The translations under genes and the position numbers were made by a program. This document shows, one piece after another, positions 22,617 to 41,626 of a stretch of DNA of 63,560 bases (position 1 is its first letter; every line of letters begins with the position of its first letter). Origin of the DNA: Candidatus Magasanikiibacteriota bacterium (GTDB lineage Bacteria; Patescibacteriota; Patescibacteriia; Magasanikbacterales; GWA2-37-8). The notes under the pieces are model-generated. The model was not told the origin of the DNA. It did not search any database and saw only the letters and a program-made list of their open reading frames with translations. The stretch covers positions 1 through 63,560 of the forward strand of contig JBAYNU010000005.1 in NCBI GenBank assembly GCA_041678665.1, given 5' to 3'.

Positions 22617-25319
22617 TCATTTATTGTGAGATTCTAATAACAACATATCGTAACCGCTTGAGCTGGCCGTTGTATATTTATTTTTTAATACATTGCTGAT
22701 CTCTAAATCAGCCAGAGGAATACTCGCTGGATAAACAAAAACTGGAGTGGAGGTATTGGTGTCCAAGAAATTTACTATCGTATTTATCTCCCCCTGATAA
22801 AAAAAATCCGACGCCGATGGCAAATCTAAAACTGAAACTGTGCCGGACTCGCCATAATAAATACCATCGTAAGATTTTGAAGATAATATTAATATCTTAT
22901 CTCCCCGCTGTGTATTCTGTTTTATGAACTGAACATTGTGGACAGCGGGCTCATCTTCGTTTTTCAAGAAAGAAGAAAAACCTAATTGAGCACCACCTAA
23001 TAATCGACCACTATTATAAAAAAAACTCGGTATAGAGGAAAAAAGAAAAAAAGAAATAAACAAAAACAATATAAGACTGCCATTTACTTTTAAACCCTGC
23101 GAAACAACAAATACCAATAGCCTCTCCGTAAAAATAGCTAGAATTAATATAGCCGGGAAAGAAGGGCCGACTAAATTAAAATCATGAGATCGACCAGTAT
23201 AATACGAGAAGAGGCCGAGACCCAAGGCTGCTAATAAAAAGATTACCTTACTTCGGTCGGTTAAGTTGTTGTTGTATAAAGCCTTAAAAGCATAAATTAA
23301 TCCTGATAGGTAAATGATGACAACTAAATTCCAGGTATGCGGCGGCGGCAACATGGGAATAAGAAAATAACCTGATAAAAATAATCTTTGATATTTTAAA
23401 AATAATTCAGGATGTACTATCTGGCCGCTTTGTAAATAGTTGAATAATACAAAGAAACCAATTACAGTGACCAGCGAAACTAATCCTGTGAGTACATGCG
23501 ACAGGGCACATTTGGCGGTTTTTTCAAGGTTGTGCCAATCACAGTCGGCATAAATTAATGTAAAAATCCAAGCAAGAAAAACTATTAGATTCGTCTCAAA
23601 ATTCCACAGTACTCCCACGGAATATAAAAAAAATGAAAATATATACAACGCCTTGCTCTTATACTTAAAATACAGCGGGGCTAACAAAATTAAAAGGCAT
23701 GGAAAAATAGTCCGAATTGGCCAATATTGAAAACCTGGTTGTCCCCCTCCGACATAGCTGGTTACATAATACGAATAAAAAAATACACTCAGAAAACTTG
23801 ACAATATTATAAACTTATTCTTTAAATTAAAATGCAGAAAAAATAAAATAGATACAAATGACGCCACTACTAGCACGGCCATTGCTATAGTAAAGTGCAG
23901 AACGGATAAACCAACGAAATCGAAGATCGACTTCAAAAAAATCGGAAATAAACCATACAAACTGCTCAAATTGACTAGAATAGTCTTGCCAAAAATAATT
24001 TGAGTTGAAGGATAAAAAACCGGATCAAAATGATAAGGATCAGAAAGATTAACTAGGCCGTAGATATTAAAAAAGAAAAGAAAAATTAGAGTGGCGGCCA
24101 CCAATATATATGATAAGAAACCCACCAATTTATTGATCACCTGTTTTTTTTCAACACCGAATGCTAGTAGTAAAAAAACTGGAAATAACAAAAATGGGTA
24201 TATTAATTTACCATAATAACTATAAAAATAACTACCTCGTATATAGAGAAAATTACTCATCGCCAAACCCACAAAGGTCAGAAAAAACAAAAATAAAATT
24301 GACAGCGGCGTAAGATAACGATAATATGCAGAAATTTTAGTATCGTCAATTTTTTTTAAATATCTACTTAAAAAAATATAAGAAAAAATTATTAAAAATG
24401 GCACAGCAAGCAAGCTCACTATAAATTGAAGTTGCTCTACCGGCTTTGGTAAAAATGTATTCATTAAGCGGCTAAGATAGATCTCCTTGGCCTGTGTTAT
24501 AATCGGTAAAATATTTGGTCGATAAATAAAAAAGATTAAACCATTAATTACTACGAGCAAAAGGCCAACTGCGATCAAAACAGAACAAAAAAGCAAATAA
24601 TCTCTTTTTTCCGGAGTGGTATCAATATAAATATTTTTACTACTATAATTTCTAATCAAAGAAACCAGCCCTAATGACAACAAAAAAGCCAACAATATGA
24701 TAAAAAATGGCGACAAAGAAGCGGCCAACGGCCCTAAAATCAACTTATCGTCTCCTGACCAATTAATCAAACTGCCAAAGAAATCTTTTCTAACCGGTAT
24801 GAGAGACTGCGCGCCCCTAACACTTGGCGGGGCCTCTAATAATAAATCAATGGCCGCTCCGCTATTTTCATCTATAAAAAAACCGGGAGAATTAGTTGGT
24901 ATCTTTCGCCAATTATTAAATAATTCCACCCCGGAAAATTCAAACTTTTTTTGACCAATCTCGATTACAATCGACTTGATTTTCGATGAGTCCTCGCTTG
25001 TGACACCGAAAAAAAATCTACTGATAAATCCATTTTGGTAGCGCCACTGTTTCGGATTATCTTTAATTAATTCCAAACCAGAAATATTACCGGCGTGCGC
25101 CAATCTTACAAGTGGCACCATAGCGTAACTATCACCTTCATCAACAGTCACTGTTATAGTGTTGGCCATTTCACGGCTGCCAATCAATCTGATTATCTGA
25201 CCCACCCACACCGAACCAAATAAAATAAATAGGGCAATTACCAATAATACTGGACGGAATTTGAAATGGCAGGTTATATCCGCCCACCATCCCTTGATAA
25301 CTGTCATAAATTTAATCAT
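22617..25319 (-). CDS. 900-aa polytopic membrane protein, candidate GT-C (YfhO/GtrC-type) extracytoplasmic glycosyltransferase
   Basis: One N-terminal helix, a soluble segment of roughly 150 aa, about 20 hydrophobic helices and a soluble C-terminal tail. It lies directly downstream of a polyprenyl-phosphate GT2. Confidence 0.55.
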   Translation of the reverse strand: MIKFMTVIKGWWADITCHFKFRPVLLVIALFILFGSVWVGQIIRLIGSREMANTITVTVDEGDSYAMVPLVRLAHAGNISGLELIKDNPKQWRYQNGFISRFFFGVTSEDSSKIKSIVIEIGQKKFEFSGVELFNNWRKIPTNSPGFFIDENSGAAIDLLLEAPPSVRGAQSLIPVRKDFFGSLINWSGDDKLILGPLAASLSPFFIILLAFLLSLGLVSLIRNYSSKNIYIDTTPEKRDYLLFCSVLIAVGLLLVVINGLIFFIYRPNILPIITQAKEIYLSRLMNTFLPKPVEQLQFIVSLLAVPFLIIFSYIFLSRYLKKIDDTKISAYYRYLTPLSILFLFFLTFVGLAMSNFLYIRGSYFYSYYGKLIYPFLLFPVFLLLAFGVEKKQVINKLVGFLSYILVAATLIFLFFFNIYGLVNLSDPYHFDPVFYPSTQIIFGKTILVNLSSLYGLFPIFLKSIFDFVGLSVLHFTIAMAVLVVASFVSILFFLHFNLKNKFIILSSFLSVFFYSYYVTSYVGGGQPGFQYWPIRTIFPCLLILLAPLYFKYKSKALYIFSFFLYSVGVLWNFETNLIVFLAWIFTLIYADCDWHNLEKTAKCALSHVLTGLVSLVTVIGFFVLFNYLQSGQIVHPELFLKYQRLFLSGYFLIPMLPPPHTWNLVVIIYLSGLIYAFKALYNNNLTDRSKVIFLLAALGLGLFSYYTGRSHDFNLVGPSFPAILILAIFTERLLVFVVSQGLKVNGSLILFLFISFFLFSSIPSFFYNSGRLLGGAQLGFSSFLKNEDEPAVHNVQFIKQNTQRGDKILILSSKSYDGIYYGESGTVSVLDLPSASDFFYQGEINTIVNFLDTNTSTPVFVYPASIPLADLEISNVLKNKYTTASSSGYDMLLLESHNK

Positions 25320-25348
25320 ATTATAGTACCATCATTTCTAATTATCCA

Positions 25349-26050
25349 TTATCCTCTCAAACGTAATCTGATCAGAGTAAAAATATAAGTTATCATAAAA
25401 ACAAACAGATTCCTCTTGGTCTTGCCTCGTATTCGACCCTTAAAATTAAAAGGAATTTCTTTAATTATGATATTATTATTGACCCTCTTTAATTTAAAAA
25501 GTAATTCTTCTATGATATCAAAATGGCTGCTGTCGAGATTTACTAATTTAAGATCAGCGGCGTGATAAAGTTTAAAACTATTAGACACATCTTTACAGGA
25601 TAAATTTAAAACCTTTGAATAAATAAAATTCACAACCAAACTCATAAATACGGTGGCTCGGCTATTTTCGGTCGATCCGCCAGTAATGTAACGAGAGGCG
25701 ATCACCACATCGTTACTATCACGACACGAGTATAAATTGGCAATAAATTCGGGATCATGAGAACCATCTCCATCCATAAAAATTATATACCGGCCGCGCG
25801 CATACTTAATACCGGTACGAACGGCATCACCATAATTGTTTCCGCAATCACGATTTCGATATAAAATATTTCCCGGAATATCCGAACAGACATGTGCGGT
25901 ATTATCCATTGGCAACATGGTGTCGATTACCAGTACTTCGTAACTTGGTTCGACTTTCGACAAAACGCCAACAAGACGGGGCAATATTATCCCTAAATTT
26001 TCCGCCTCTTTGTACGCGGGTACTACCACACTCAGCTGAATATCATTCAT
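25349..26050 (-). CDS. Polyprenyl-phosphate glycosyltransferase (Dpm1/GtrB/CsbB-like GT2)
   Basis: VVPAYKEAENL, FMDGDGSHDP, C-terminal hydrophobic helix. Confidence 0.75.
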   Translation of the reverse strand: MNDIQLSVVVPAYKEAENLGIILPRLVGVLSKVEPSYEVLVIDTMLPMDNTAHVCSDIPGNILYRNRDCGNNYGDAVRTGIKYARGRYIIFMDGDGSHDPEFIANLYSCRDSNDVVIASRYITGGSTENSRATVFMSLVVNFIYSKVLNLSCKDVSNSFKLYHAADLKLVNLDSSHFDIIEELLFKLKRVNNNIIIKEIPFNFKGRIRGKTKRNLFVFMITYIFTLIRLRLRG

Positions 26051-26053: not shown

Positions 26054-27073
26054 TTATTTATTCATGACCCAATCAAGCATTTTACTGATGCCGGTAACCT
26101 TATCAACACTCGGCGACCAACCGATTATCTTGTTAATTTTACTCAAATCGGCGACGAAAACCCTCTGATCACATTTTCTAATGGGCAATTTGATATAATT
26201 CATTTTAATATGAAACATATCCTCCAAGATATCAAACAATTCTAAAAGGGATAAACTGTTATCCATGCCACCGCCAATATTAAAACTCTGGCCTTTAATT
26301 TTATTAATACCCTCTACGGCCTGCAGATAAAGCGTTATCACATCTTCAACGTGGAGCACATCTCTAACCTGTTTACCGTTACCAGATATTGTAAAAGGCT
26401 CATTAAGTCTGCCCTGTTTAATCTCGACGGCCTTTTGACAAAACCACCCAATCCAACCCTGGTCATAAGTGGCAAATTGACGCCCGCCATACATGGAAGA
26501 ATGCCTAAAAACGACAGTGTTCAGACCGTAAATACGACTAAAATCCTGCATATATTGATCCGCGCTACCCTTGGAACAACCATATGGAGACGAAAATTCC
26601 AGCGGAATACTCTCGGGGAAACCATTCTTAAAATCTGGGGCGATATATCTTTTTGCTAACTCTTCATATTTTACCCATTCCATATCTCCATATACTTTAT
26701 TGGTAGATGAATATATTATTACTGAATGGGGTGAAAATTTACGCACTGAATCCAATAAATTAAGAGAGCCGAGAGCATTTACATCAAAGTCCCTTTTGGG
26801 ATTATTGATTGAGGTGGTCATAGCAACTTGCCCGGCCAAATGAAAAATTGCCAATGGCTCTTCTTTGGTTATTAAATTCTTAACCGCCGAATAATCACTA
26901 ATGTCACCCTTAACAAATTCAAAATTACCCTGACTTTCAAGCCAACGTAAATTTTCGACCGAGCCCAAACGGGATAAGTCGTCAAAAATTACCAAATCAT
27001 CCCCTGTTTGAATGATTTTTTTAGCAAGATTTGCACCCAAAAATCCACAACCGCCAGTTATTAAATACTTCAT
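26054..27073 (-). CDS. SDR nucleotide-sugar epimerase (CDP-paratose 2-epimerase-like)
   Basis: ITGGCGFLGANLA, YGCSKGSADQY, 339 aa. Confidence 0.7.
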   Translation of the reverse strand: MKYLITGGCGFLGANLAKKIIQTGDDLVIFDDLSRLGSVENLRWLESQGNFEFVKGDISDYSAVKNLITKEEPLAIFHLAGQVAMTTSINNPKRDFDVNALGSLNLLDSVRKFSPHSVIIYSSTNKVYGDMEWVKYEELAKRYIAPDFKNGFPESIPLEFSSPYGCSKGSADQYMQDFSRIYGLNTVVFRHSSMYGGRQFATYDQGWIGWFCQKAVEIKQGRLNEPFTISGNGKQVRDVLHVEDVITLYLQAVEGINKIKGQSFNIGGGMDNSLSLLELFDILEDMFHIKMNYIKLPIRKCDQRVFVADLSKINKIIGWSPSVDKVTGISKMLDWVMNK

Positions 27074-27074
27074 A

Positions 27075-27956
27075 TTAATTTCTCATTTGCTTCTCAATTA
27101 ACAACATTTTTGCTAAACCAGATTTGATGTCATATTTTGGTTGCCAACCCAAAAACCTGGTTGCAGCCGTATCGGATTTTGATTCCATTATTTCATTTAC
27201 ACGGTATGGTATGACTCCAAAATTAAGCATCGTCATCTGGTTGCCAGACAATTCTTTTATCATCTCTACCAAGTGTCTGATAGATATCAAATTATTAGTA
27301 CCGACCTCATAATGAAAAAATCCCTTAGTATTTTGGGGGATATTATTAATGATCGCCATAAAGGCATCAACTACATCATCTATATATATAAAATCTCTTT
27401 TTTGTTCGCCTGGGGTCAAATCTATATTATCAACCTTATTTAACAAACAATCAAAAATATAGGAAACGAATTTAGTTTTATCGTCTCCCGGGCCATAAAA
27501 ATGTTCCAAAGCCACGTTAACGCAATATAAACTATTTCTGTATCCTACCAGCCAATCATTAAATTGCTGTTTCGATAAAGAATAATGACTAATGCCTTTA
27601 TCTAAAATTGTATCGGTATTGATAAAACAAAAAACTTTATTTTCTTTGCTTAATTCCAATAAGCGCAGAGGTAGAATCAAGTTCGCTTCAATTATTTGCA
27701 GCGGACTAACTTGTTTACGACCGTAATCGGTGGCACAATGAAGTACAATATCTACAGCATGTTGTTTAAAAATATCCGATAAATTATCCCTATCAATATT
27801 ATAAAACAAAACTTTATTTATATATTTTTCTATTCTGGATAAATTAGAAAAAGACCGCTTAAGTAGTATCACATTGTATTTATCAGAAATCAGGCGTTTC
27901 AGGATATTACTTCCTAAAAAACCAGTACCACCAGTTAAGAGTACCGTCTTAATCAT
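27075..27956 (-). CDS. SDR nucleotide-sugar reductase/epimerase (paratose/abequose-synthase-like or 4-keto reductase)
   Basis: LTGGTGFLGSNI, YSLSK, 293 aa. 8-nt overlap with the rfbH-like gene. Confidence 0.65.
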   Translation of the reverse strand: MIKTVLLTGGTGFLGSNILKRLISDKYNVILLKRSFSNLSRIEKYINKVLFYNIDRDNLSDIFKQHAVDIVLHCATDYGRKQVSPLQIIEANLILPLRLLELSKENKVFCFINTDTILDKGISHYSLSKQQFNDWLVGYRNSLYCVNVALEHFYGPGDDKTKFVSYIFDCLLNKVDNIDLTPGEQKRDFIYIDDVVDAFMAIINNIPQNTKGFFHYEVGTNNLISIRHLVEMIKELSGNQMTMLNFGVIPYRVNEIMESKSDTAATRFLGWQPKYDIKSGLAKMLLIEKQMRN

Positions 27957-29268
27957 ACTTCTCCAAAAAATTAATAAACGCGGCTACCATATGATTAGCC
28001 ATTATTTCGGTAATACCGGGGTATACCCCAACCCAAAAAGTGTTATTCATAATTAAATCGGTATTTTTAAGATCTCCAACGATACGATATTTTATATCAC
28101 TATCCACAAAATACGGTTGCTTAATTAAATTACCGCCAAATAAATAACGAGTGGCGATCTGCTCACCTTGTAAAAATTTAATAATTTCATTACGAGTAAA
28201 TGGAGCGTCTTCTCTTATGGTTAGCAGGAACCCAAACCAACTCGGCTCGGCTTGATCCAACCACTTCGGTAAAATAAAATATTGCTCATATTTTTTTAAT
28301 CCATCATATAAAATTTTAAAATTCTCACGACGTTTATCTACAAAACCATCCAACTTGTCTAATTGAGCCAGTCCAATAGCGGCTTGAATGTCGGTAACTT
28401 TAAGATTATATCCGATTTCTGAATAAATATACTTATGATCATAACCAAACGGCAACTTGCCTAATTGCCAGCCAAACCGCATACCACAAGTATCATCGTG
28501 GCCAGTCTTACACCGACAATCACGCCCCCAATCGCGCATAGCACGCACTATAACGGACAAAACATCATCGTTAGTAAATACTGCCCCGCCCTCTCCCATA
28601 GTAATATGATGAGCGGGATAAAAACTACAAGTTGCAATATGTCCGTAAGTCCCAGTATGTTTACCGGCATATCTAGAACCAAGGGCGTCGCAATTATCCT
28701 CTATAAACCACAAATTATGCTCTTTACAAATTTGATCCACCGCGGAAATATCAAAAGGATTCCCCAAAGTATGAGCCACAAAAATTGCTTTGGTTTTAGA
28801 AGAAAGTGCCATTTTAATCTGATCAATCAATATATTATAACTACCGACCTCAACATCAACAAATACAGGAACAAATCCGTTTTGAATGATAGGGTTTACT
28901 GTACTAGGAAAACCAGCAGCCACTGTAATCACTTCGTCGCCCGGTTTCATCCTATGATCACCTAATTTATTAGAAGTTAAAGCCGACATTGCTAATAAAT
29001 TTGCTGATGAACCAGAATTAACCAAAATCACATTCTTAACCCCCAACCAATGACTTAATTTTTGTTCAAACAAATCACTAAACCGCCCTTCAGTCCACCA
29101 ACCATCTAAAACTGCTTCTACTCCATTGATTATTTCCTGTTCATCAAAAATCTTTCCAGATACTGGAATGGATGACTCACCTGCAATAAATTGCTTAAAC
29201 GGAAATTTAGTTTGGTAATACGCAATAATCTCATTTTTTAAATTATCGTTCATATAAGTATTAAACAA
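27949..29268 (-). CDS. rfbH: PLP/PMP-dependent CDP-4-keto-6-deoxyglucose 3-dehydrase (DegT/RfbH family)
   Basis: 439 aa. The N-terminus IPVSGKIFDEQEIINGVEAVLDGWWTEGRF is typical of RfbH/DdhC. Confidence 0.8.
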   Translation of the reverse strand: MFNTYMNDNLKNEIIAYYQTKFPFKQFIAGESSIPVSGKIFDEQEIINGVEAVLDGWWTEGRFSDLFEQKLSHWLGVKNVILVNSGSSANLLAMSALTSNKLGDHRMKPGDEVITVAAGFPSTVNPIIQNGFVPVFVDVEVGSYNILIDQIKMALSSKTKAIFVAHTLGNPFDISAVDQICKEHNLWFIEDNCDALGSRYAGKHTGTYGHIATCSFYPAHHITMGEGGAVFTNDDVLSVIVRAMRDWGRDCRCKTGHDDTCGMRFGWQLGKLPFGYDHKYIYSEIGYNLKVTDIQAAIGLAQLDKLDGFVDKRRENFKILYDGLKKYEQYFILPKWLDQAEPSWFGFLLTIREDAPFTRNEIIKFLQGEQIATRYLFGGNLIKQPYFVDSDIKYRIVGDLKNTDLIMNNTFWVGVYPGITEIMANHMVAAFINFLEKYD

Positions 29269-29272
29269 AGAT

Positions 29273-29740
29273 TTATGTTAAAAATTTTACCGATCTTTCC
29301 CACAACTCCTTATGCGCTTCGATAATATTCTTGGGCATTTTTTTAAAAAATTTTCCATGAATCGGCTTCATCATTGTCTTACACATAAAAACTAGCGAAA
29401 TCACATGACCACGCTTTCCTTGGCTGCAATCTTCGGCATACAAAAATTTATGGCTAACTAGATTGATACCGAGTTCGTCCCAGGCCACCTTATCTAATCG
29501 CTCCTCAAATCTCTCGCGAAAACGCAAAAGTCCGCCCGGGAAATGCCAACCATGCCACCACTTATCCTGTCGCCATTCCATCAAAATCTCATTTTTTTCA
29601 CTTACGACAACCAATTCACACGCCACAAACGGAACCACACCACACAATGCATCAAAAACCGATTGTGGTAGGCCCTCGTGTGGCTTGTCTATCTTCTTGA
29701 GTAAAGACACTAGCTGTTTTAATTCTTTTTTGTTAAGCAT
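29273..29740 (-). CDS. Nudix hydrolase with a degenerate Nudix box (GDP-mannose mannosyl hydrolase-like)
   Basis: GGLLRFRERFEERLDKVAWDELGI. The box lacks the canonical REUxEE, as in Gmm/WcaH-type enzymes. Confidence 0.65.
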   Translation of the reverse strand: MLNKKELKQLVSLLKKIDKPHEGLPQSVFDALCGVVPFVACELVVVSEKNEILMEWRQDKWWHGWHFPGGLLRFRERFEERLDKVAWDELGINLVSHKFLYAEDCSQGKRGHVISLVFMCKTMMKPIHGKFFKKMPKNIIEAHKELWERSVKFLT

Positions 29741-29745
29741 ACTAA

Positions 29746-31428
29746 TTAAACATTAATATCTCTTAATTTGCCCGCGGTCCACCTCTCCAACAAATGCTGG
29801 TCGGGATCAAGCATTAGTTCGCAAACAATCGGGCCGGGGCAATCAACCACTTTTTTAATTTTATATAACTCGCCGTCATTATTTATTTTTTCATACGCCA
29901 ACCCCCAAGCCGCAATCAACCGGCTATAATCCGGCAAACTTACTCCAGATGCAGGATCAGCGGCAAAATTTTTATTAAAAAATTTCAATTGAGTATTGCG
30001 AATAGAATAATAACCATTATTATTAAAAATAAAAATTTTAACGGGTAAATTATGGTAAAGTGCGGTCTGCAAATCCTGAATGTTCAACATTAGCGACCCG
30101 TCACCTTCGCAACAAACAACCGGCTGTTTGCCTCTCGCCACACAAGCCCCGATTGCCAACGGTAAACCAGACCCCATATGCCCCAAGCCGGCGTTGGTTA
30201 TAAAACGTTGCCCACGCTTAATTTTAAGCCCCTGATGTGGCGCTAAACTGGCCATACCATTGGCGGTAGCCACATCCATATTACCTATATATTTCCCCAG
30301 CTCTTCCAAAAATTTATAAACATTGAGATACTGTTTGTCAACGGGGTAATTATCCGGATTGATGGATTCAGTTCTCACTTCCCAGCGATTTAATTTAATA
30401 TTTTGTTGGTAAAGTTCTTCTAAAAATAATTTGGCGTCAACATGAATAGGTATATCAATATGGATAGTCTTTTTTGACATTTCGTTGGCATCTATATCAA
30501 CCATTATTTTTTTAGCCTGTACAGCAAATTTATTATAATCAAACGATGTTTGGGTTAGTTGCAGCCTTTCCCCTACCACTAATAATACATCACAATTATC
30601 AATCGCATAATTAGCGGTTTTATTACCCGGCATACCCTGCCTGCCTAAATAATACGGATAATCAACTGTTACTAAGTCATCAGCGGTAAAAATAGGAGTA
30701 ACGCTGTTAATTTTGAACTTTGCTAATACTTTCCACAAAATCTTTTCTCCTCCAGCCAGACGAATACCATTGCCGGCCATTAAAAGTGGGCGCTTGGCTT
30801 CTTGTAATAGCTCTACCACCTTTTTCATCAACTCGCCTCCTACTAATAACTGTTTTTCTGACAATTCCGCTGGATCAAAAATTTTTAATTTCTCTAGGTC
30901 AATTTCTTCCGCCTGAACATCCAAAGGGATTTCAACAAAAACCGGCCCCGGTCGTCCGTGAGTCGCTAAATACAAAGCTTTCTCCAAATGGTAACTAATC
31001 TCTTCTGGTTTATCCACAGTAATGGCATATTTAGTAATTGGCTTAACAATATCTATTACATTTAATTCCTGAAAGCCTATTTGCCGCACCGTAGGCAGAC
31101 CATTTACCTGCGGAACAATATTATCTCTTTTGACCTGCCCGGCTACAACTAGCATTGGTATGCTATCTAGCCATGCGCCCGCTATACCAGTAACTGCGTT
31201 GGTTCCACCCGGTCCGGTAGTAACTAAACACACCCCGATACTGTTGGTATTGATGCGTGAATACCCCTCGGCCGCAATCGCCACCGTTTGTTCGTGATGA
31301 CAACAATAAGTCTGCAATTTTGATCGACCCACCGAATCTACTAGATGCATAATACCGCCACCAGACAGCAAAAAAATAGAATCAGTATGCCATTCAATAA
31401 ATTTTACTACATAATCACTTAATTTCAT
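29746..31428 (-). CDS. Thiamine-diphosphate enzyme of the acetolactate-synthase large-subunit family
   Basis: 560 aa. N-terminal Pyr domain SGGGIMHL. ThDP motif GLGHMGSGLP...GDGSLMLN..NN. Confidence 0.85.
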   Translation of the reverse strand: MKLSDYVVKFIEWHTDSIFLLSGGGIMHLVDSVGRSKLQTYCCHHEQTVAIAAEGYSRINTNSIGVCLVTTGPGGTNAVTGIAGAWLDSIPMLVVAGQVKRDNIVPQVNGLPTVRQIGFQELNVIDIVKPITKYAITVDKPEEISYHLEKALYLATHGRPGPVFVEIPLDVQAEEIDLEKLKIFDPAELSEKQLLVGGELMKKVVELLQEAKRPLLMAGNGIRLAGGEKILWKVLAKFKINSVTPIFTADDLVTVDYPYYLGRQGMPGNKTANYAIDNCDVLLVVGERLQLTQTSFDYNKFAVQAKKIMVDIDANEMSKKTIHIDIPIHVDAKLFLEELYQQNIKLNRWEVRTESINPDNYPVDKQYLNVYKFLEELGKYIGNMDVATANGMASLAPHQGLKIKRGQRFITNAGLGHMGSGLPLAIGACVARGKQPVVCCEGDGSLMLNIQDLQTALYHNLPVKIFIFNNNGYYSIRNTQLKFFNKNFAADPASGVSLPDYSRLIAAWGLAYEKINNDGELYKIKKVVDCPGPIVCELMLDPDQHLLERWTAGKLRDINV

Positions 31429-31439: not shown

Positions 31440-32063
31440 TTATTTTTTTAGATCTTCCAATAATTTACCGGCCACACCTACATAACTCGGCTCGGTGGTA
31501 TCAATTCGTTGCACGGTGGAAAAATCAATCTCTTTAAACATATTTTTTGCCCACTGAAATTTTTCCATAGAATTTATATTTGACTGGGTATGTTCGCGCT
31601 TGCGCTGTTCAATCCTATTTTCAATCTCATCGTCTGGGGCAGTCAATAAAAACGACCGTGTAGGTATTGTGCCGCTTTCCATGCTATCAAACAAAACTTT
31701 TAATGGTTTTTTGAATTCGTCGCGAGAAAATGTCCCGGTCAAAATAACCGGCATGCCTTTTGACACCATTTCCTTCGCCGTTTCACAAATCGCGCTATAG
31801 GACTTGATCATTACCTCTAATTCATCCTTTGCCTTAAGAGATGCCATATCAGCACTACGACCATCCTCCTTTTCAATTTTTCTTCTAAACTCATCAACAT
31901 CGAGTACTTGCAAATTTGACTTCTTGGCCAACTCATACGCCAAAGTTGTCTTACCGGTTAGTGGTGGTCCGGTAAAAACAATAATACACGGTTTATATTC
32001 TATTTTATAGCCGGCTTCCATCGCCTCAATTTTACTCCCGTCTTCAATAGACATAAAGCTCAA
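31440..32063 (-). CDS. P-loop kinase-like protein
   Basis: Walker A GPPLTGKTT. 207 aa. ATGA-type overlap with the upstream HAD gene. Confidence 0.55.
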   Translation of the reverse strand: MSFMSIEDGSKIEAMEAGYKIEYKPCIIVFTGPPLTGKTTLAYELAKKSNLQVLDVDEFRRKIEKEDGRSADMASLKAKDELEVMIKSYSAICETAKEMVSKGMPVILTGTFSRDEFKKPLKVLFDSMESGTIPTRSFLLTAPDDEIENRIEQRKREHTQSNINSMEKFQWAKNMFKEIDFSTVQRIDTTEPSYVGVAGKLLEDLKK

Positions 32064-33002: not shown

Positions 33003-34538
33003 TTATATCACCCAGTAAGTAAGTATGGTTTTACGATTCGGATTGTTAATAATGTCCTGATCTTCATAAAAAGAATCGTTTTTGTAATGCGTGGTGGAAA
33101 TTTCTTCAAAAACGCAACCGCCGTTAGATTCAAAATCGTGATTACAACCCCTTTCAATAGTAAGTATATCCCCTGGCCCACAAGTCTGTTTGTTGCTGCC
33201 AACACCAAAAGTGACGTCACCCCAAAGAACATGAAAAGTTTCTTCTTTTAATTTGTGAGTATGGGTAGGATGTTTTTGACCCGGCAACATAACAATCAAT
33301 TTTTTACAGTATTCACGATTAAAGCAACTTACGATACTAGCTCCGATATCATGAAATTTATCTAATCCGTAATGATGAGAAAGTTCAAAATCCCACTTGT
33401 TAGAAATTGGAACACCGGCTTTCTTTAAAATTTCGTTAACCTTTTTAAGAACCTCGTATACCTTTTCTCTTACCTCTAATATACTCAATTCGGACGCCAT
33501 GATGGGATCATTTTTCTTAAAATCCTTTTGAGCGGTCAAAACCGTATATTTTGACATATCATTAGCCAGTATCTGACCATCTTTATTGGGGAAAGCAAAA
33601 AAAGTATTGGTAACATCAATTCTCTCCCCCGCTTTTATATCTCTACCCGCGAATACTCCTCTTTGAAATTGTCTAATATCTGCCGACTCGGCCGAATTAA
33701 ATTCATGGCGCCTACCGACAACTCCACAAATTTTATAAGCTTGTCGAGCTGCCTCCAGCCAATTTCGTAATTGGTCGGGGGTAGCGGAGTAGGCATTAAT
33801 CGGATATTGCTCTGTTTTAATACTTACGTGTTTTTCTAAAATACCAGCCCCTTTGGCTACGGCCAATTTAACTGCCTCGAAATTATCCGGACGCTCATGA
33901 GTAGAGAATCCAATGGTTATCTCGGGGTACCGATCGCGTAATAACGTAATTTGATTAAATTGTAGCTGGCCATCTTCTGTGGGATATTGGCCGACACAAT
34001 GCATAACAGCGAACTGTTTGTTGCGATGACTAAAAAAATTAACCACTTTGTCGATATTCTCTATCTTCACCCCTCCGGTAGACGCGATGATAGGCTTGTC
34101 GCAAGAAACTATTTTCTCCAAGAGCGGCCAATCAGTAAAAGAAGCGCTGGCAATTTTTATAATATCGTAGTTGTGCTTAACAATTTTTTCCACTGATGCT
34201 TCGTCGAACGGGGTACAAATAGAAATAAAACCCAATTTCTCTACTTCATTTTTTAAAGTTAAAAACTCTTCTTCTTTTAATCGAGTTTCGGAAAAACGCT
34301 TTATGTATTTAAGATCCATTCGATCTTTATAATCAGGGTGGATAAAAGTATCTAGATCCCGATATTGAAACTTAAAAGCAAAATTAAAATCAAAATCCTT
34401 ACTAACGGAATGGACATCGCGAATAATTTTAAGCCCATGATTCACATCGCCCATGTGGTTATTGGCCATTTCAAAAATAAAAAGCGGCTTAGCGTCGCCA
34501 GCTTGGCGTTGACTAAAAATTTGGCTGATATTTTTCAT
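33003..34538 (-). CDS. NeuB-family (sialic/nonulosonic acid synthase-like) enzyme with a SAF domain and a C-terminal cupin domain
   Basis: FEMANNHMGD, TPFDEASV, IASTGG and GFSTHE align with NeuB landmarks. SAF-like IKAGERI. C-terminal HTHKLKEETFHVLWGD..GD.. cupin signature. Confidence 0.78.
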   Translation of the reverse strand: MKNISQIFSQRQAGDAKPLFIFEMANNHMGDVNHGLKIIRDVHSVSKDFDFNFAFKFQYRDLDTFIHPDYKDRMDLKYIKRFSETRLKEEEFLTLKNEVEKLGFISICTPFDEASVEKIVKHNYDIIKIASASFTDWPLLEKIVSCDKPIIASTGGVKIENIDKVVNFFSHRNKQFAVMHCVGQYPTEDGQLQFNQITLLRDRYPEITIGFSTHERPDNFEAVKLAVAKGAGILEKHVSIKTEQYPINAYSATPDQLRNWLEAARQAYKICGVVGRRHEFNSAESADIRQFQRGVFAGRDIKAGERIDVTNTFFAFPNKDGQILANDMSKYTVLTAQKDFKKNDPIMASELSILEVREKVYEVLKKVNEILKKAGVPISNKWDFELSHHYGLDKFHDIGASIVSCFNREYCKKLIVMLPGQKHPTHTHKLKEETFHVLWGDVTFGVGSNKQTCGPGDILTIERGCNHDFESNGGCVFEEISTTHYKNDSFYEDQDIINNPNRKTILTYWVI

Positions 34539-34549: not shown

Positions 34550-35599
34550 CTATTTTAAAAAACTCTGAATTGTTCTATAAAAACCGTCGCGTACGCTCAA
34601 CTTGCACCGATAACCCAGCTCTTCAATTTTGGCGGTTGATAACATCGGGCGGATATTATTTTTATTCTCGAGATAATTATCGTCTTGCCCGCGACCCTCA
34701 TAAATAACTTTCAATTTTTTTTCTGGAAACAAAGAGATCAGCAACTCAGCCAAATTACCGACAGACATCTGACCGGCACTATTACCCACATGATAACTTT
34801 CGCCGGATTTACCTTTCAATAATGCCCTAAAGAAGCCATCGGTGGCATCGCTAATATAGCAAAAAGTCCGAACCGGCCGGCCATCGCTTTTTACTTTGAT
34901 ATCTCGATTGTTCACTACATCCGAAACAAATTCAGAGAACACTCTCTTGTCATTATTCAAATCAAGAGTGGGGCCATAGGTATGCTCGGGTCTGACCACT
35001 ATTGTCGGCACTTGATATTGATGATGCCAACACTTGCACATATTCTCGCCCATGCGCTTACTTTCACCATAACAATTTCTAATATCGGTGGGATCCAAAT
35101 AACCACCTTCGGATTCGGTTATCACTTTTTTATCGGCCGTGCCGCTAACTTCTCCGCTGCTAAAAAATAAAAAACCATTGGACTGCTTCTCTCTGGCTAG
35201 CTCCAATAAATTCCTGGTGCCAAAAACATTGGGCAAGATTACCCCCACCGGATCAATGCCATAAAATTGGGGACTAGCTGGACTGGCGGCATGAATAATA
35301 TAGTGAATGTCTTCCGAAATGTTAATTTTGTTGAGAATATTCTCGTCGGAAATTTGCAGTAGAGGTGAATTTAAAAAATCACTAAATCTCGCCCGAGCTT
35401 TGTCAAGATTACGACAGAGGGCAATGATTTTTATATTTAAATGCGGATTTTTTTCGTTTAGATAAGCCAGGGTATACACCATGTAAGACGCCAACATACC
35501 ATTGGCTCCGGAAATCAAAACAGTGCGGTCTTTAAACCTTTCCCAGTCTAAATCGCTATTGCAAATTGATTCTAAATCATCTCTAATGATTTCGTTCAT
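34550..35599 (-). CDS. SDR nucleotide-sugar epimerase/dehydratase
   Basis: ISGANGMLASYM, YGESKRMGE. Start set to MNEIIRDD (35599), giving a 4-nt overlap with the upstream gene. Confidence 0.75.
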   Translation of the reverse strand: MNEIIRDDLESICNSDLDWERFKDRTVLISGANGMLASYMVYTLAYLNEKNPHLNIKIIALCRNLDKARARFSDFLNSPLLQISDENILNKINISEDIHYIIHAASPASPQFYGIDPVGVILPNVFGTRNLLELAREKQSNGFLFFSSGEVSGTADKKVITESEGGYLDPTDIRNCYGESKRMGENMCKCWHHQYQVPTIVVRPEHTYGPTLDLNNDKRVFSEFVSDVVNNRDIKVKSDGRPVRTFCYISDATDGFFRALLKGKSGESYHVGNSAGQMSVGNLAELLISLFPEKKLKVIYEGRGQDDNYLENKNNIRPMLSTAKIEELGYRCKLSVRDGFYRTIQSFLK

Positions 35600-36591
35600 A
35601 ATATTGATTTTCCAAAATCTAAATCTGGCGACTGATTGGCTTGATGAATACACTGACTAAGAATAAACCCCGACTCGTCCTTGATCGCATCCATGGAACT
35701 ATACACTGGCTTATAACCGAACTTAAATGATTTATTATTGCGGGAGTAATAATTATTTTTGACACCGGTGGGACTAGCGTGATTAGCGGCCCAACCGATC
35801 TCATATTTAAGTCCGTACTCTGACGCAAAATAATTTATTATTTCTCTCTTTTCCACTGGTTTGGAGCTACTCACGTCAAACGCACTATTGATCCTTTTGG
35901 CCGCGATACATTGACAAATCATGGAATAAAGGTCCTGGGGATGAATAAAATCACGAACAATATTTACATTATCAGTGATGAGTATTTTATTATTCAATAT
36001 TGAATTCATCACATCGGTAATAAAATAACTATCACCCATGCTGGAATAACGACTGAAATATGAAAATATCCTAAGATCTACAATATTCAAATGATTAAAC
36101 GAGCGGTGCTTGGTCTCGGAATTAAGTCTAGCGATGGTATAATATTCTTCGCTCTTAATATGGTTCACCGGGATGATATTCTTGGTATCTTCTTCCGCGG
36201 GAGCCAAGAATTCCCCGCCATATACGACTCCACTACTAAAACTAATGTAGATAGCATTGGGACAAATATTGCACAAATACTTTATGACCATATTGTCATA
36301 TTCTTCGGTAACCGTAAGATAAAGAGTGTAATCACCTTGTAGCTTATTCCTAGTCCCGACCCCGATGCAATTAATTATAACATCATACGGGTTGTTTCCA
36401 AATTCCTGGTATCCCACATTAATAGTACGCGGTTGGTTGGGACAATGTAAGGCGTCAAAAAAAATTTTCAATTTTTCCGGTGATCTGGTATAAAGATGCA
36501 ACTCCACCTTACTATCTAACAAAAAATTACTTATCAGTCCTCTGGCAATATTTGAAGTGGCACCTAAAATGGCAATTTTTAAATTCCCCAT
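35596..36591 (-). CDS. NAD(P)-binding Rossmann protein (atypical SDR)
   Basis: IAILGATSNIARGL. 331 aa. Confidence 0.55.
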   Translation of the reverse strand: MGNLKIAILGATSNIARGLISNFLLDSKVELHLYTRSPEKLKIFFDALHCPNQPRTINVGYQEFGNNPYDVIINCIGVGTRNKLQGDYTLYLTVTEEYDNMVIKYLCNICPNAIYISFSSGVVYGGEFLAPAEEDTKNIIPVNHIKSEEYYTIARLNSETKHRSFNHLNIVDLRIFSYFSRYSSMGDSYFITDVMNSILNNKILITDNVNIVRDFIHPQDLYSMICQCIAAKRINSAFDVSSSKPVEKREIINYFASEYGLKYEIGWAANHASPTGVKNNYYSRNNKSFKFGYKPVYSSMDAIKDESGFILSQCIHQANQSPDLDFGKSIL

Positions 36592-36600
36592 ATAATAGAC

Positions 36601-37761
36601 TCAATATATTTTTATTACTTCATTTTTTAATTTTAAAATTTCCGTAATCTGACGAGCAACCTCATCTTGATAAGAATAAGTTGAAATCAAAATTGGCACA
36701 TCTTCTTTGATATCTTGGGGTGATTTAATTTCCACTCCGTTTATTTTTTTACCCCAATATCTGGCGTTGGAATCAACAAAATACAATACTTTTGAGAGAT
36801 CCAACCCCGAACCGACCAACATCTGAGTGTGAGTGCCTACCCCCCAAATAATCATTTTGTTTTTATCTAATAATTTTTTACGAATCACGTCCTTCAGCTT
36901 CAGATCCAACTTAGAAGATAAAGAAATATAACTTTTCAGTTTTTCTTCACAAGTGTTGTCTTTAACCAATTTATAATCAATTTTTTCCGATTTCCTCGAC
37001 AAAACGAAGATGTCAGGATCGACCATTTGGTTTACAGTATTTTCATCTTTTTTAATCTCAATTATATTAAAAGCAAATTTTGATAATAAATTTTTAATAG
37101 AATCACATGAAAAATAGTTTACATGCTCGATACTAAACTGCTGGAAGGGAACAAAAATATAGCCATCAAACCTAGTAGCGTCCGGAATCTCAACAAATAA
37201 TAGTCCGTCGTCTTTTAATAATGTCCTTATTTTCCCCATGGCGGTAGTAAAATCTACCAAATGTTCCAAAACTGCCGACAAAATAATCAGATCAAACTTG
37301 TTTTTATCATTAAAATTATAAATATTTTTAGATACAGCTTCGATATTATATAGTTTCTTTACCGTTTCTACACATCTGGCTGATGGATCTACCCCCAAAA
37401 GATTGTTAAAACCATTTTCTTTAAATTTGGACAAAAGACACCCGGTCGAACAACCAATATCCAAAATTCTGGCGTTTTTATCCTTTAAATGAGGGGTTAA
37501 AAAATTAACAATTTTCTTAAAATAATTTTCGTAGTCGTCTGAAACCGCCCCACCACTATAATTAAATTCCCATTTTGACATCACCGCATAATAATTATTA
37601 AATTCGTCTTGAGATGGTATATTGTCAGCATAAGCCATGCCACAGCTATCACAAATCACCACATCATAATTCTCCATCAAAGCAATGGTTTTGTTGCCGA
37701 AGTTCTGTTGATAGAGAAACTTCTTATTGGCACCAGAACAAACTGGACATGCTCGATTCAT
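36601..37761 (-). CDS. Zn-ribbon + class I SAM methyltransferase, NDP-hexose C-methyltransferase-like (TylCIII-type architecture)
   Basis: CPVCSG...CDSCGM zinc ribbon, ILDIGCSTG motif I, and an extra C-terminal domain. Confidence 0.65.
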   Translation of the reverse strand: MNRACPVCSGANKKFLYQQNFGNKTIALMENYDVVICDSCGMAYADNIPSQDEFNNYYAVMSKWEFNYSGGAVSDDYENYFKKIVNFLTPHLKDKNARILDIGCSTGCLLSKFKENGFNNLLGVDPSARCVETVKKLYNIEAVSKNIYNFNDKNKFDLIILSAVLEHLVDFTTAMGKIRTLLKDDGLLFVEIPDATRFDGYIFVPFQQFSIEHVNYFSCDSIKNLLSKFAFNIIEIKKDENTVNQMVDPDIFVLSRKSEKIDYKLVKDNTCEEKLKSYISLSSKLDLKLKDVIRKKLLDKNKMIIWGVGTHTQMLVGSGLDLSKVLYFVDSNARYWGKKINGVEIKSPQDIKEDVPILISTYSYQDEVARQITEILKLKNEVIKIY

Positions 37762-37771
37762 ACGCGAAAAA

Positions 37772-38788
37772 TTATTTATAGAACTTTTTTAACCTACTAG
37801 CATCTGCACCAAGATCATCTTCCGGAAATAAACGATACTTCATAATATTGCAATCAACGCAGGTTTGGCAGGTATTTTTAATGCCGTCAAGCATTTTACA
37901 TCTAAAATTTTGGAATTCTTTACCCTGCCAAATCTCGTTGATGGATTGACGGTTACAATCCCCCATGATGCCGGGGTATTCAAAGGAAAAACACGGCACC
38001 ACTTTTCCATCCGGATTGATTTGCATGGTGAAAAAGGGCTGAGGACAAATCTTGAAATCCTTCACAGGCAACCCAAATTGGGTAACAGCTGCACCACTCT
38101 CCTTGATTATATTTTTATAATCTATACCCGTATGAATAGGCACGGTATGCTCAACGGCTATCGTATCGCAAATATCCCCAAAAATTTCATAAAATTTCTT
38201 TTCGTCTTCCTTGCCGTCCAACGCACTATCCACAATTTTAAAATATACATGAGTATTGCCTTTGTGGTTAAAAAAATATTGTAAATTTTCAATAAATTTA
38301 TCAAAATCTATGTCTGCCCCGCATATTTTTTTATACTTTTCTCGACTGGTACCTTGTAACGATACAACCAGTCTATTAAGGCCGGCCGATATCAAGGAAT
38401 CAGACATTTGTGGGGTCAACAATGCCGCATTAGTCAAAATTTCGACGGTATTGGCGACATTTTTTGACACCGCATAGGCAATCATTGCGGCAATATTTTT
38501 ATGCAACAACGGCTCGCCAATTCCCACAAAACGCAGGACCTTAATCTTATTGGGAAACTTAGTCATGTCGTCTATGTATTTTTTGTATAGATCAAAATCC
38601 ATCACAACCTTATCGGAAATAAAACCGCGCTTAGATGGGTCTACTGAAAAAATACAATAACAACACTTAAACACGCAGGCATAAACCGGAAATATCTGTA
38701 CCACAAAGGGCGTGTCCAAGGGCAACACCTCTGCCAACTTCGTGCGTTTGCCTCCCGGCGCTTGCCCGCTGATATCTTTAGCTTTCAT
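37772..38788 (-). CDS. Radical SAM enzyme with a Cys-rich SPASM-like C-terminal domain
   Basis: CVFKCCYC (CX3CX2C). C-terminal CPQPF..PC..GDC...C..C.TC.DC. Confidence 0.85.
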   Translation of the reverse strand: MKAKDISGQAPGGKRTKLAEVLPLDTPFVVQIFPVYACVFKCCYCIFSVDPSKRGFISDKVVMDFDLYKKYIDDMTKFPNKIKVLRFVGIGEPLLHKNIAAMIAYAVSKNVANTVEILTNAALLTPQMSDSLISAGLNRLVVSLQGTSREKYKKICGADIDFDKFIENLQYFFNHKGNTHVYFKIVDSALDGKEDEKKFYEIFGDICDTIAVEHTVPIHTGIDYKNIIKESGAAVTQFGLPVKDFKICPQPFFTMQINPDGKVVPCFSFEYPGIMGDCNRQSINEIWQGKEFQNFRCKMLDGIKNTCQTCVDCNIMKYRLFPEDDLGADASRLKKFYK

Positions 38789-38809
38789 ATGGATAATTGG
38801 AAAAAAACT

Positions 38810-39511
38810 TTAAGTCCATTTAAGATCTTTAATATCAACATTAAAATATTTTTGAGTAAAACAGGCACCTTGGTTATCTTTGATATTTAATTTGCCGGTT
38901 GAATCCGTGAAAACGATAGAATTTTCCGGGATGTCCGCCTTAAATACGACCGAATTTATACCAATTGACGAATAATCCCCTATCTTACCGCTTCCAATAA
39001 TGCTAGAACCGGCCGCCAGAAATACCCCCTTGCCGATCGTGGGCGGCTTCCAGGTACCATCATCGTCCCCGGTATTAACCGTAACATTTTGGAATACTAC
39101 TAAAAAATTTGAGTAAATCGCATTGCCGATGATAGTACCGATCGCGTGAGAAAAAAGAAAAATATCCGGCATTTTACATTTATAGGAAATAAATATGGAA
39201 TTTAGCGTTTTATTGAGTAAGAGTAATTTATCACATAGTGGTTTATTCTGTGATTCCAGCCATAGACTATTGGCCAAAAAATACAAAAAGGAACAATACT
39301 GATCGGCATGTAAGTGATAAAAACAAGTATTATTTTGCTCGTTATAATACCGCAAGCTAATATGCTTAAAACAATACTCCGTCCTCTGTAGAGCCGTATC
39401 AAACGCCCGGTCTATATCCGCACCGACGAATTTATACTTATCGGGGAAAAAATTATCAAGCTGTCCGGAAATATATTGTTTTAATTCGGAATGGGACAAT
39501 GATAAATTCAT
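38810..39511 (-). CDS. Left-handed beta-helix (hexapeptide) acyl/acetyltransferase
   Basis: C-terminal hexapeptide-like repeats IGKGVFLAAGSSIIGSGKIGDYSSIGINSVV, with a serine-acetyltransferase-like N-terminal part. Confidence 0.68.
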   Translation of the reverse strand: MNLSLSHSELKQYISGQLDNFFPDKYKFVGADIDRAFDTALQRTEYCFKHISLRYYNEQNNTCFYHLHADQYCSFLYFLANSLWLESQNKPLCDKLLLLNKTLNSIFISYKCKMPDIFLFSHAIGTIIGNAIYSNFLVVFQNVTVNTGDDDGTWKPPTIGKGVFLAAGSSIIGSGKIGDYSSIGINSVVFKADIPENSIVFTDSTGKLNIKDNQGACFTQKYFNVDIKDLKWT

Positions 39512-39535
39512 GTTCTTGAATTAATTGGTTATCGC

Positions 39536-40633
39536 CTACGAAAACAATCTCTTGTCTTTATAAAACGGTTTTTGAGTTTTATCTTCGTGGGTAAATACTT
39601 CCGAGCAAGGAACGGGCAGGGGCTTGTCATAAATCCTTCCAGCCACATATTTTTCAATAAAATGTCGATCTTCCGCTATCGAACAAGTATCAACATATTC
39701 ACCAAAATACTTAATGTCAAAGCCTCTTTTTATAATATCTTTAAGTGGCTCTTTGAATACATTGCCAATGGAAGTATGAATGTAAGGACAGGGAAGCACA
39801 TCTCCATATTGCGTGACGGAAAACATTCCCTTCACCGCGATACAACCCATATTAATTCCGTAAGCCGAGGTCAAATGGGTAAAAACTTTATATTTCTTTT
39901 CTAATTTTTCCATATACGCCATATCCTTTCTGTCAATCAAACAATCAAAATTTCCCTCCCATGCTCCGACTGGCTTGGCATAGCTCACAAAAACGCCAAT
40001 GCCTTTATTGGTAAAATATTCCAGATACTTAATAAATTCGTCCGAATAAAGTCTCTCTTTCCAAACTACCGTCTGCATAAAAATATCCATCCCAATCTCC
40101 TGGGCAATATCCACGGCCTTCAGCACTCGGGCATGCGATCCGGGAGACCTTCTAAACGCATCGTGCTCTTTAGCATTTAAACTATCCAGACTAACCTGCA
40201 CTCTATCCACACCAATGTCTTGCAAATGTCTCATCCTTTTTTCGTCCAGTAGCCAGCCGTTAGAATCGCTGTTGATATAAAATTTCTGCGGGTCAATAGC
40301 CGCCACTAATTCGTCAAAATCCTTAAATACCATCGGTTCGCCGCCGGTAATAGTCACCCGCGCTAATCCCAACTCATCAGCTTGTTTAAATAAATTTTTA
40401 ACATCAGGGATAGTGAATTGACGGGTTTTGTTGGGGCCTTGAAACCGTTTAACCGAGCAGTGGACACATCGAAAGTTACAGGTGTAATTATATTGAAACT
40501 GAATAATAGCGATGCTTTCACCCCTTCTAATCTTTTCATCAAACTTGGCAATCTTTTCAAAAACATAGGGCTTCCTCTCTTTAAGCCGATTACGATTGGT
40601 GGCCTCGACCGATTTTAATTTTTGATCTGACAT
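39536..40633 (-). CDS. Radical SAM enzyme with a SPASM/twitch-like C-terminal Cys cluster
   Basis: CNFRCVHC (CX3CX2C), ITGGEP, C-terminal GCIA...LPCPY...C. Confidence 0.85.
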   Translation of the reverse strand: MSDQKLKSVEATNRNRLKERKPYVFEKIAKFDEKIRRGESIAIIQFQYNYTCNFRCVHCSVKRFQGPNKTRQFTIPDVKNLFKQADELGLARVTITGGEPMVFKDFDELVAAIDPQKFYINSDSNGWLLDEKRMRHLQDIGVDRVQVSLDSLNAKEHDAFRRSPGSHARVLKAVDIAQEIGMDIFMQTVVWKERLYSDEFIKYLEYFTNKGIGVFVSYAKPVGAWEGNFDCLIDRKDMAYMEKLEKKYKVFTHLTSAYGINMGCIAVKGMFSVTQYGDVLPCPYIHTSIGNVFKEPLKDIIKRGFDIKYFGEYVDTCSIAEDRHFIEKYVAGRIYDKPLPVPCSEVFTHEDKTQKPFYKDKRLFS

Positions 40634-41624: not shown

Positions 41625-41626
41625 TC

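Follow-up and report, generated by a model that had tools for sequence, protein, structure and literature searches.

A predicted YerE/JanthE-like ThDP enzyme among CDP-3,6-dideoxyhexose and NeuB-type genes in a Patescibacteriota glycan cluster, and the branched sugar it may form

The window analysed here is a stretch of 63,560 nucleotides from a Candidatus Magasanikiibacteriota genome (GenBank assembly GCA_041678665.1, contig JBAYNU010000005.1, positions 1 to 63,560), and its subject is a predicted thiamine diphosphate (ThDP)-dependent enzyme encoded among genes for cytidine diphosphate (CDP)-activated 3,6-dideoxyhexoses. The genome comprises 1,105,141 bases in 36 contigs, with 100% completeness and 3.9% contamination by marker genes, and the nearest public proteins are from metagenome-assembled genomes of Patescibacteria and Magasanikbacteria. 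From about 7995 to 52447 almost all genes lie on the minus strand and belong to glycan-biosynthesis families, as judged from the list of open reading frames (ORFs), Pfam and NCBIfam.

Five contiguous genes at 26054–31428, described in a first-pass annotation made from the sequence, are true ORFs on the minus strand with spacings of +5 to −8 bases. They encode the ThDP enzyme (560 amino acids; 29746–31428); a Nudix-fold protein (29273–29740); RfbH/DdhC, an E1-type CDP-6-deoxy-4-hexulose 3-dehydrase (27949–29268); an extended short-chain dehydrogenase/reductase (SDR) of 293 amino acids, SDR293 (27075–27956), which overlaps RfbH by 8 bases; and SDR339 (26054–27073), likewise an extended SDR, a 339-amino-acid homologue of CDP-tyvelose 2-epimerase. 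Directly upstream of the ThDP gene, on the same strand, sit a P-loop kinase (AAA_33 by Pfam; 31440–32063), an HAD-IIB (Cof-type) phosphatase (PF08282, TIGR00099; 32060–32998) and a 511-amino-acid fusion of a NeuB-type phosphoenolpyruvate (PEP)-dependent synthase with a cupin (Pfam NeuB and Cupin_2; 33003–34538), hereafter NeuB-cupin. The rfbF-like gene and 4,6-dehydratase-like SDR that the same annotation had placed at 40659–42421 were also found, again on the minus strand: a CDP-glucose 4,6-dehydratase-like extended SDR (DdhB/RfbG-like; 40659–41624), for which the best model was TIGR02622 (186.9 bits versus a cut-off of 278.45), and a glucose-1-phosphate cytidylyltransferase (DdhA/RfbF-like; 41627–42421; TIGR02623, 276.6 bits versus 300.25), predicted to make CDP-glucose, whose ATG start was read directly at 42421.

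The 560-residue protein has all three ThDP-enzyme domains (PF02776, PF00205 and PF02775) and shows approximately 30% identity to both IlvB and IlvI of E. coli. In alignment with these the cofactor-binding GDG and the catalytic HEQ are conserved; the RFDDR motif of acetohydroxyacid synthase (AHAS), the last arginine of which binds the acceptor carboxylate, is RLQLT in the window protein. None of the 25 models shown reached its cut-off, the best AHAS model being TIGR00118 with 346.8 bits versus 538.35. No IlvN or IlvH was found in the 36 contigs by tblastn with the E. coli proteins, and profile searches of the genome found neither a KARI_C (ketol-acid reductoisomerase, KARI) nor an ILVD_EDD (dihydroxyacid dehydratase, DHAD) domain. 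The best PDB match was 8rph, near full length with 348.8 bits, by comparison with about 220 for plant AHAS and 211 for E. coli AHAS I; 8rph was also the top PDB match for representatives of three homologue clades (343–367 bits). This structure is of JanthE, described in the accessible text of two papers as a YerE-like enzyme (PMC12188165, PMC12247030).

Homologues of the ThDP enzyme were collected from one genome per species, giving 80 loci from many phyla at 33–74% identity, the ORFs of which were compared with the window proteins. A maximum-likelihood tree was built from 85 rows with none dropped, rows of more than 660 amino acids being trimmed to their last 640 residues and E. coli IlvI, IlvB and Gcl serving as references. 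A branch with 100% support sets the E. coli trio and one long-branch row apart from the remaining 81 rows. As the first-pass annotation had supposed, then, the window protein does not group with IlvB or IlvI, and we conclude that it is not an AHAS because the AHAS models remain below cut-off, IlvN/H, IlvC and IlvD are absent and the best solved relative is JanthE. Membership of the YerE family is supported by the domains, motifs, JanthE match and gene context, the predicted link resting mainly on the last two.

The 3-dehydrase assignment of RfbH, by comparison, could be read from its residues. The protein scored 691.5 bits with NF011936 (cut-off 423) and reads SFYPAH220H, with His220 where the lysine that binds pyridoxal phosphate would stand; it has the cysteine pattern C193-X57-C251-X-C253-X7-C261, which agrees with the published spacing of the four-cysteine motif in E1. 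The CxCx7C part is retained in 35 of 36 RfbH homologues of related ThDP loci. His220 in place of lysine and the four-cysteine pattern together bear out the earlier view that this aminotransferase-fold protein is an E1-type 3-dehydrase and not a normal DegT transaminase. In the accessible text of PMC8987622, E1 and SpnQ have the four-cysteine [2Fe-2S] site, ColD is without it, and the role of the histidine is described. A ColD-type dehydrase was considered for the window protein and rejected, as the cysteine motif is present.

E1 is normally partnered by the E3 reductase DdhD/RfbI, which had not been seen at the locus. The genome-wide search agreed, with no Fer2 and no FAD_binding_6 domain found and PyrK, encoded beside PyrD, as the sole NAD_binding_1 protein; a profile search of the genome likewise found no flavodoxin domain. 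Among 95 unassigned ORFs of 170–330 amino acids from 33 NeuB-linked loci there was no E3-like protein, and two DdhD-like candidates from a regular-expression screen of the 80 loci were both SDRs by Pfam. The only E3-like neighbour seen was in an Ignavibacteriota locus (L019, 6712–7401), where a 229-amino-acid FNR-like NAD_binding_1 protein without a ferredoxin domain directly follows RfbH. As there is no DdhD in the genome, a general electron carrier is presumed to reduce E1, and loci of this cassette seem as a rule to operate E1 with no E3 of its own. One possible carrier is a 60-amino-acid 4Fe-4S ferredoxin of single-cluster type, encoded directly downstream of a 226-amino-acid NifU/IscU-like gene (G000:C2:68939–71992; L086, 1378–2230); this and a 47-amino-acid ORF on contig C17 were the only two small Fer4 matches in the genome. 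The operon's pair of radical SAM enzymes likewise need a low-potential donor.

The reaction of NeuB enzymes joins PEP to a free aldose and yields an alpha-keto acid, namely a 3-deoxy-2-ulosonic acid. Residues 16–352 of NeuB-cupin match PDB 3g8r, an uncharacterised 'SpsE' of the NeuB family from Chromobacterium, with 383 bits, and residues 355–449 match the D-lyxose/D-mannose isomerase cupins 7nzo/2y0o at E of about 1e-5. The NeuB Pfam score is 148 bits, with the equivalogs TIGR03569 (140.5 versus 399.65) and TIGR03586 (126.1 versus 340.25) below cut-off. HAD phosphatases border the ThDP gene in related loci. PDB matches of the kinase span the P-loop only, and a 33%-identical homologue is encoded near the NeuB-cupin gene in another genome (G120). 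YerE-like enzymes take alpha-keto acids as donors, according to the accessible text of PMC12247030.

The neighbourhood of the ThDP gene was counted for 81 full-length homologues with flanks of 10 kb. In 33 of them the ThDP gene has a NeuB-like gene no more than 2.5 kb away, and in 39 the flanks include an RfbH homologue with an identity of 40% or more, a count lowered because many flanks end at contig ends. The order that recurs across phyla is cytidylyltransferase, 4,6-dehydratase, RfbH, SDR, NeuB-like gene, sometimes a small HAD gene, and ThDP gene; next there often come genes for a GFO/IDH/MocA oxidoreductase or an FkbM methyltransferase, for two radical SAM enzymes and for a methyltransferase (Pfam of related loci). 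The cytidylyltransferase gene is a conserved member of the cassette, and the 4,6-dehydratase-like gene stands between it and RfbH in many loci. The cultivable Clostridium cavendishii DSM 21758 also carries the cassette (L066), there without the NeuB gene. In ten homologues the locus has an acetaldehyde dehydrogenase and/or a DmpG-type aldolase, both genes being confirmed by Pfam in two loci (L060, L073); this pair is the ErwI/ErwJ arrangement of the erwiniose scheme (PMC9306805).

On the tree the window protein and four Patescibacteria rows cluster together (100% support), and this cluster is nested in a group of 51 rows (Shimodaira–Hasegawa-like approximate likelihood ratio test 86, under the star threshold) that includes all 34 NeuB-linked rows; eight of the ten aldolase-linked rows fall in a separate clade. 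The NeuB label required five changes on the tree by comparison with a mean of 16.9 after shuffling, and none of 500 shuffles was as low, a contrast that kinship inflates. Eight homologues from Omnitrophota and Planctomycetota (L007, L008, L010–L013, L017 and L024) form a clade of their own with ORFs of 776–1046 amino acids, the N-terminal extension of 200–450 residues being perhaps a fusion or an ORF-calling artefact. Two Patescibacteria loci (L009 and L065) each have two ThDP paralogues beside acetaldehyde dehydrogenase/DmpG aldolase genes, and the two copies of a locus are placed apart on the tree.

A regular ulosonic acid requires a cytidine monophosphate (CMP)-transferase step before it can enter a glycan. 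No CTP_transf_3 domain scored above cut-off in the window's own genome, the single weak match being an ordinary NTP_transferase; nor was one found among the 95 ORFs without a window match from the 33 NeuB-linked loci, a scan whose limits of 170–330 amino acids could overlook long or fused CMP-synthetases. We also sampled 400 other genomes of the phylum, in which a strong ThDP homologue (at least 337 bits) was present in 13 and a NeuB-cupin orthologue (at least 276 bits) in seven. NeuB-cupin and ThDP genes are at most 5 kb apart in two of these genomes (G115 and G192, adjacent in the latter), and in a third (G236) a more distant NeuB-like gene lies 4 kb from the ThDP gene. With NeuB beside ThDP, G115 and G236 have no CTP_transf_3 and G192 has only a 28.8-bit match some 770 kb off; in four of the five ThDP-less genomes with NeuB-cupin, CTP_transf_3 adjoins that gene or lies within 4 kb of it. 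This either-or pattern is the one expected if the module yields a free ulosonic acid with two alternative outlets, CMP activation or grafting by the ThDP enzyme, and we treat it as a lead, not as proof. We put at about even the chance that the ulosonate module (NeuB-cupin, phosphatase and, here, kinase) has as its alternative fates a CMP-activated Kdo/Kdn-like sugar or, after decarboxylation, a ThDP-catalysed graft on C-4 of CDP-4-keto-3,6-dideoxyglucose. Another locus (L104, on G279:C2; 2971–12624) has two NeuB-family synthases, a canonical NeuB-SAF and a NeuB-cupin, each with its own CTP_transf_3; there a single methyltransferase gene separates NeuB-cupin from its CTP_transf_3 and an HAD-FkbM fusion follows the NeuB-cupin gene.

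A reading of the two SDRs as the reductases that act with the ThDP enzyme did not survive comparison with related loci. SDR339 matches 9rl0 (546.8 bits) and 1orr (483.2 bits) over its full length, by comparison with 137 bits for the next family, and is thus a tyvelose 2-epimerase homologue. SDR293 has generic PDB matches and falls in generic epimerase/dehydratase clusters of the ESM Atlas; it is probably a paratose-synthase-type 4-ketoreductase from its position between RfbH and the Tyv homologue and from the order ddhC-prt-tyv, which we take to be that of the Salmonella/Yersinia 3,6-dideoxyhexose clusters. Neither SDR is conserved in the closest ThDP cassettes, and an SDR293 homologue (E at most 1e-30) is found in only four of the 400 other genomes. 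The pair recurs instead with two further genes of the window, those for a glycosyltransferase of family 2 (GT2) of polyprenyl-phosphate type (25349–26050, minus strand; weak NCBIfam matches AglJ, PgfS, ArnC and PpgS) and for a 900-amino-acid protein with no Pfam family (22617–25319, minus strand). All four genes are present in one further genome (G397) and the first three in another (G047); the recurrences map to 22617–26050 in the window, to L093 (9840–15070) and to L090. In G397 there is no ThDP gene, and the dehydrase, near gmd, is ColD-like, with the histidine kept and no cysteine motif. We therefore reject the SDRs as YerF-type partners: because they are absent from the closest ThDP cassettes and recur with the GT2 and the 900-residue protein without ThDP, they would form a separate module for tailoring and transfer of a 3,6-dideoxyhexose that uses the same E1 product. 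SDR367 (34550–35653), conserved in the cassette and with generic PDB matches, is a better candidate for a YerF-like reductase of the side chain.

The pathway that we propose would begin along the classical route, with the cytidylyltransferase, the 4,6-dehydratase-like SDR and the pyridoxamine phosphate (PMP)/[2Fe-2S] enzyme E1, presumably reduced by a general carrier, giving CDP-4-keto-3,6-dideoxy-D-glucose. From here the route may divide. On one branch the YerE/JanthE-like ThDP enzyme would decarboxylate an alpha-keto acid and transfer the acyl anion to C-4, creating a tertiary-alcohol branch; on the other, SDR293 and the tyvelose-epimerase homologue would turn the 4-keto sugar into a plain 3,6-dideoxyhexose of paratose/tyvelose type, to be handed on by the GT2 and the 900-residue protein. 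The donor for the first branch is probably not pyruvate but a free 3-deoxy-2-ulosonic acid, for which the kinase may phosphorylate the aldose, NeuB-cupin would condense PEP with aldose or aldose phosphate, and the HAD enzyme would probably dephosphorylate the product. The sugar formed would bear a long, polyhydroxylated side chain like those of caryophyllose, gastriose or aurantose. That the operon grafts a NeuB-made long keto acid on CDP-4-keto-3,6-dideoxyglucose via the ThDP enzyme, for a cell-surface glycan, has in our judgement a little better than an even chance of being right.

Several observations weigh against this proposal. The other YerE-like structure, 5ahk (which we take to be PpYerE), scores 241.5 bits with the window protein, barely above the AHAS score of about 220, and scores no higher than AHAS for two clade representatives. 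For the kinase, tblastn gave no match spanning half or more of its length in the 80 related loci, and no reductase for the 60-residue ferredoxin was found in the genome. Of the 13 other genomes in which the ThDP match is strong, only three have a NeuB-like gene near it, and five of the seven sampled genomes with NeuB-cupin have no ThDP match at E 1e-50; the module therefore has a life independent of the ThDP enzyme. The either-or pattern comes from few, related genomes, to which the length limits of the ORF scan must be added, and the paratose-synthase-like label of SDR293 rests on its position and on the ddhC-prt-tyv order. Family assignments, sequence motifs, gene linkages and gene absences are direct results of the searches, whereas which keto acid serves as donor, what the ThDP enzyme takes as acceptor, what it makes, whether the route forks and what reduces E1 are inferred, the first three from gene context.

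Of the readings that compete with it, a genuine AHAS large subunit lying by chance in a glycan cluster is scarcely credible: all of the best NCBIfam names are acetolactate synthase and the identity to IlvB/IlvI points the same way, but this was rejected on the sub-cut-off AHAS models, the missing small subunit, KARI and DHAD, the separation on the tree and the loss of RFDDR. A classical yersiniose pathway is a more serious competitor, in which pyruvate supplies a two-carbon unit, a neighbouring SDR reduces the acetyl branch, and NeuB-cupin, HAD phosphatase and kinase serve an unrelated sugar. YerE is the founding precedent (PMC9306805 and the accessible text of PMC12247030), JanthE takes pyruvate among other donors (accessible text of PMC12188165), two SDRs lie directly downstream of RfbH and NeuB-cupin can occur without a ThDP gene. 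Such a pathway would, however, leave the NeuB product without another outlet, as no CMP-ulosonate synthetase was found in the genome or the 95 scanned ORFs whereas one does adjoin NeuB-cupin in ThDP-less genomes; the NeuB-linked homologues cluster on the ThDP tree; and the SDRs, one of them homologous to tyvelose epimerase and the other its partner, show no conserved association with the ThDP gene. The annotated possibility of a yersiniose-like branched sugar thus holds in that a predicted YerE-like enzyme stands beside CDP-3,6-dideoxyhexose genes, but a two-carbon branch is unlikely because of the NeuB-cupin, HAD and kinase genes upstream, the NeuB linkage in 33 of 81 homologues and the lack of a CMP-ulosonate synthetase, a context that favours a long keto acid.

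It is also conceivable, and to us less probable than the yersiniose pathway, that the ThDP enzyme uses the NeuB keto acid but not a CDP-sugar, with RfbH serving only the paratose/tyvelose branch. The enzyme might then be a plain decarboxylase yielding a 2-deoxy-aldose, or a carboligase with a different acceptor, for example Gmd-derived GDP-4-keto-6-deoxymannose. On their own, RfbH, SDR293 and the Tyv homologue do make up a complete classical branch, gmd and fcl lie within the same cluster, and 42 of the 81 homologues are without RfbH of at least 40% identity in flanks that often stop at contig ends. Yet in the closest relatives RfbH, the cytidylyltransferase and the dehydratase are present and the Tyv pair is not, which leaves RfbH there with no other evident use, and ALS (acetolactate synthase)-family enzymes of this type are carboligases.

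The Nudix protein between RfbH and the ThDP enzyme scored only marginally with PF00293 (23.5 bits versus a cut-off of 21.1). Its box had been called degenerate and is so, reading GX5EX7-KV-AWDELGI where the canonical GX5EX7REUXEEXGU has RE (here KV) and EE (here DE); the signature is like that of GDP-mannose mannosyl hydrolase. The fold is nevertheless predicted to be Nudix (pLDDT, predicted local distance difference test, 86), and the top Foldseek matches are all Nudix proteins and point to no specific function. Matches by tblastn covering at least half of the protein were found in 8 of the 80 related loci, and only one glutamate of the box is invariant across eight homologues. The protein may hydrolyse a nucleotide sugar and so supply free aldose.

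Between NeuB-cupin and the dehydratase-like gene (34550–40633, minus strand) lie genes for SDR367, SDR331, a methyltransferase, a radical SAM/SPASM enzyme, an acetyltransferase and a second radical SAM enzyme, which are candidates for tailoring of the side chain. The wider glycan region contains gmd, fcl, many glycosyltransferases, a Wzx flippase and a Wzy_C protein. At 11554–14634 a SIS isomerase, GHMP kinase, HAD phosphatase and nucleotidyltransferase are encoded side by side, resembling a nucleotide-activated heptose pathway, and the head of the cluster (46405–52447) encodes the Wzy_C-family protein and a protein of 1282 amino acids with a lamin-tail domain.

Acyl-branched sugars such as yersiniose, erwiniose and caryophyllose are rarely met among surface determinants, and the ThDP enzymes of branched sugars are sought as catalysts for chiral tertiary alcohols. 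If the proposed pathway is correct, a bacterium of the candidate phyla radiation (CPR) without an outer membrane would carry on its surface a branched 'higher sugar' of 13 to 15 carbons; PEP-dependent synthases would be a second, unrecognised source of donors beside pyruvate aldolases, extending the donor range to sugar-like 2-keto acids; and enzymes such as JanthE would gain candidate physiological substrates, which are stated as unknown in the accessible text of PMC12188165. A 1.1-Mb genome of episymbiont type devotes about 45 kb to an elaborate glycan, and within it E1-type deoxygenation would, from the gene content, proceed without the textbook reductase.

A role for YerE-like ThDP enzymes in sugar branching is already known, and the accessible text of a review cites an in-silico study in which more than 200 such enzymes were predicted (PMC12247030). 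Neither 'NeuB' nor 'phosphoenolpyruvate' occurs anywhere in the available text of this review, and a whole-word search found no paper pairing 'YerE' with 'sialic acid synthase', Krug et al. (2024) and Lanza et al. (2024) being outside its coverage. The best solved relative, JanthE of Janthinobacterium sp. HH01 (8rph, 8rpi and 8rpj), shares the three-domain ALS fold with the window protein but has the ThDP motif CDG (accessible text of PMC12247030) in place of the canonical GDG.

The closest biosynthetic precedent is YerE/YerF in CDP-yersiniose A formation by Yersinia pseudotuberculosis, with which the window shares an ALS-like ThDP enzyme in a glycan cluster and the same predicted acceptor, made by DdhA, DdhB and E1; it differs in having neither DdhD/E3 nor an identified YerF, and in that the likely donor is a long keto acid made by NeuB and not pyruvate. 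The gene order of RfbH, an SDR of about 290 amino acids and the 339-residue tyvelose epimerase homologue mirrors the ddhC-prt-tyv order of Salmonella and Yersinia, again without ddhD. SpnQ, the 3-dehydrase of spinosyn forosamine, is like the window RfbH an E1-type PMP/[2Fe-2S] enzyme with no dedicated E3 and functions with general ferredoxin or flavodoxin reductase pairs (accessible text of PMC8987622), although its substrate is a deoxythymidine diphosphate (dTDP)-sugar of secondary metabolism whereas the window RfbH stands in a CDP-sugar setting. The clusters for erwiniose (ErwE/F/I/J), caryophyllose (MMAR_2331/2332) and gastriose (MygE/I/F) likewise place a keto-acid-forming enzyme beside the ThDP enzyme, with a CDP-dideoxy-keto acceptor (PMC9306805), and the very pair of ErwI/ErwJ type is present in two of the aldolase-linked loci, L060 and L073. 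In the published branched-sugar clusters the keto-acid-forming enzyme is a pyruvate aldolase; in the window its place is taken by a PEP-dependent NeuB-family/cupin fusion together with a phosphatase and a kinase.

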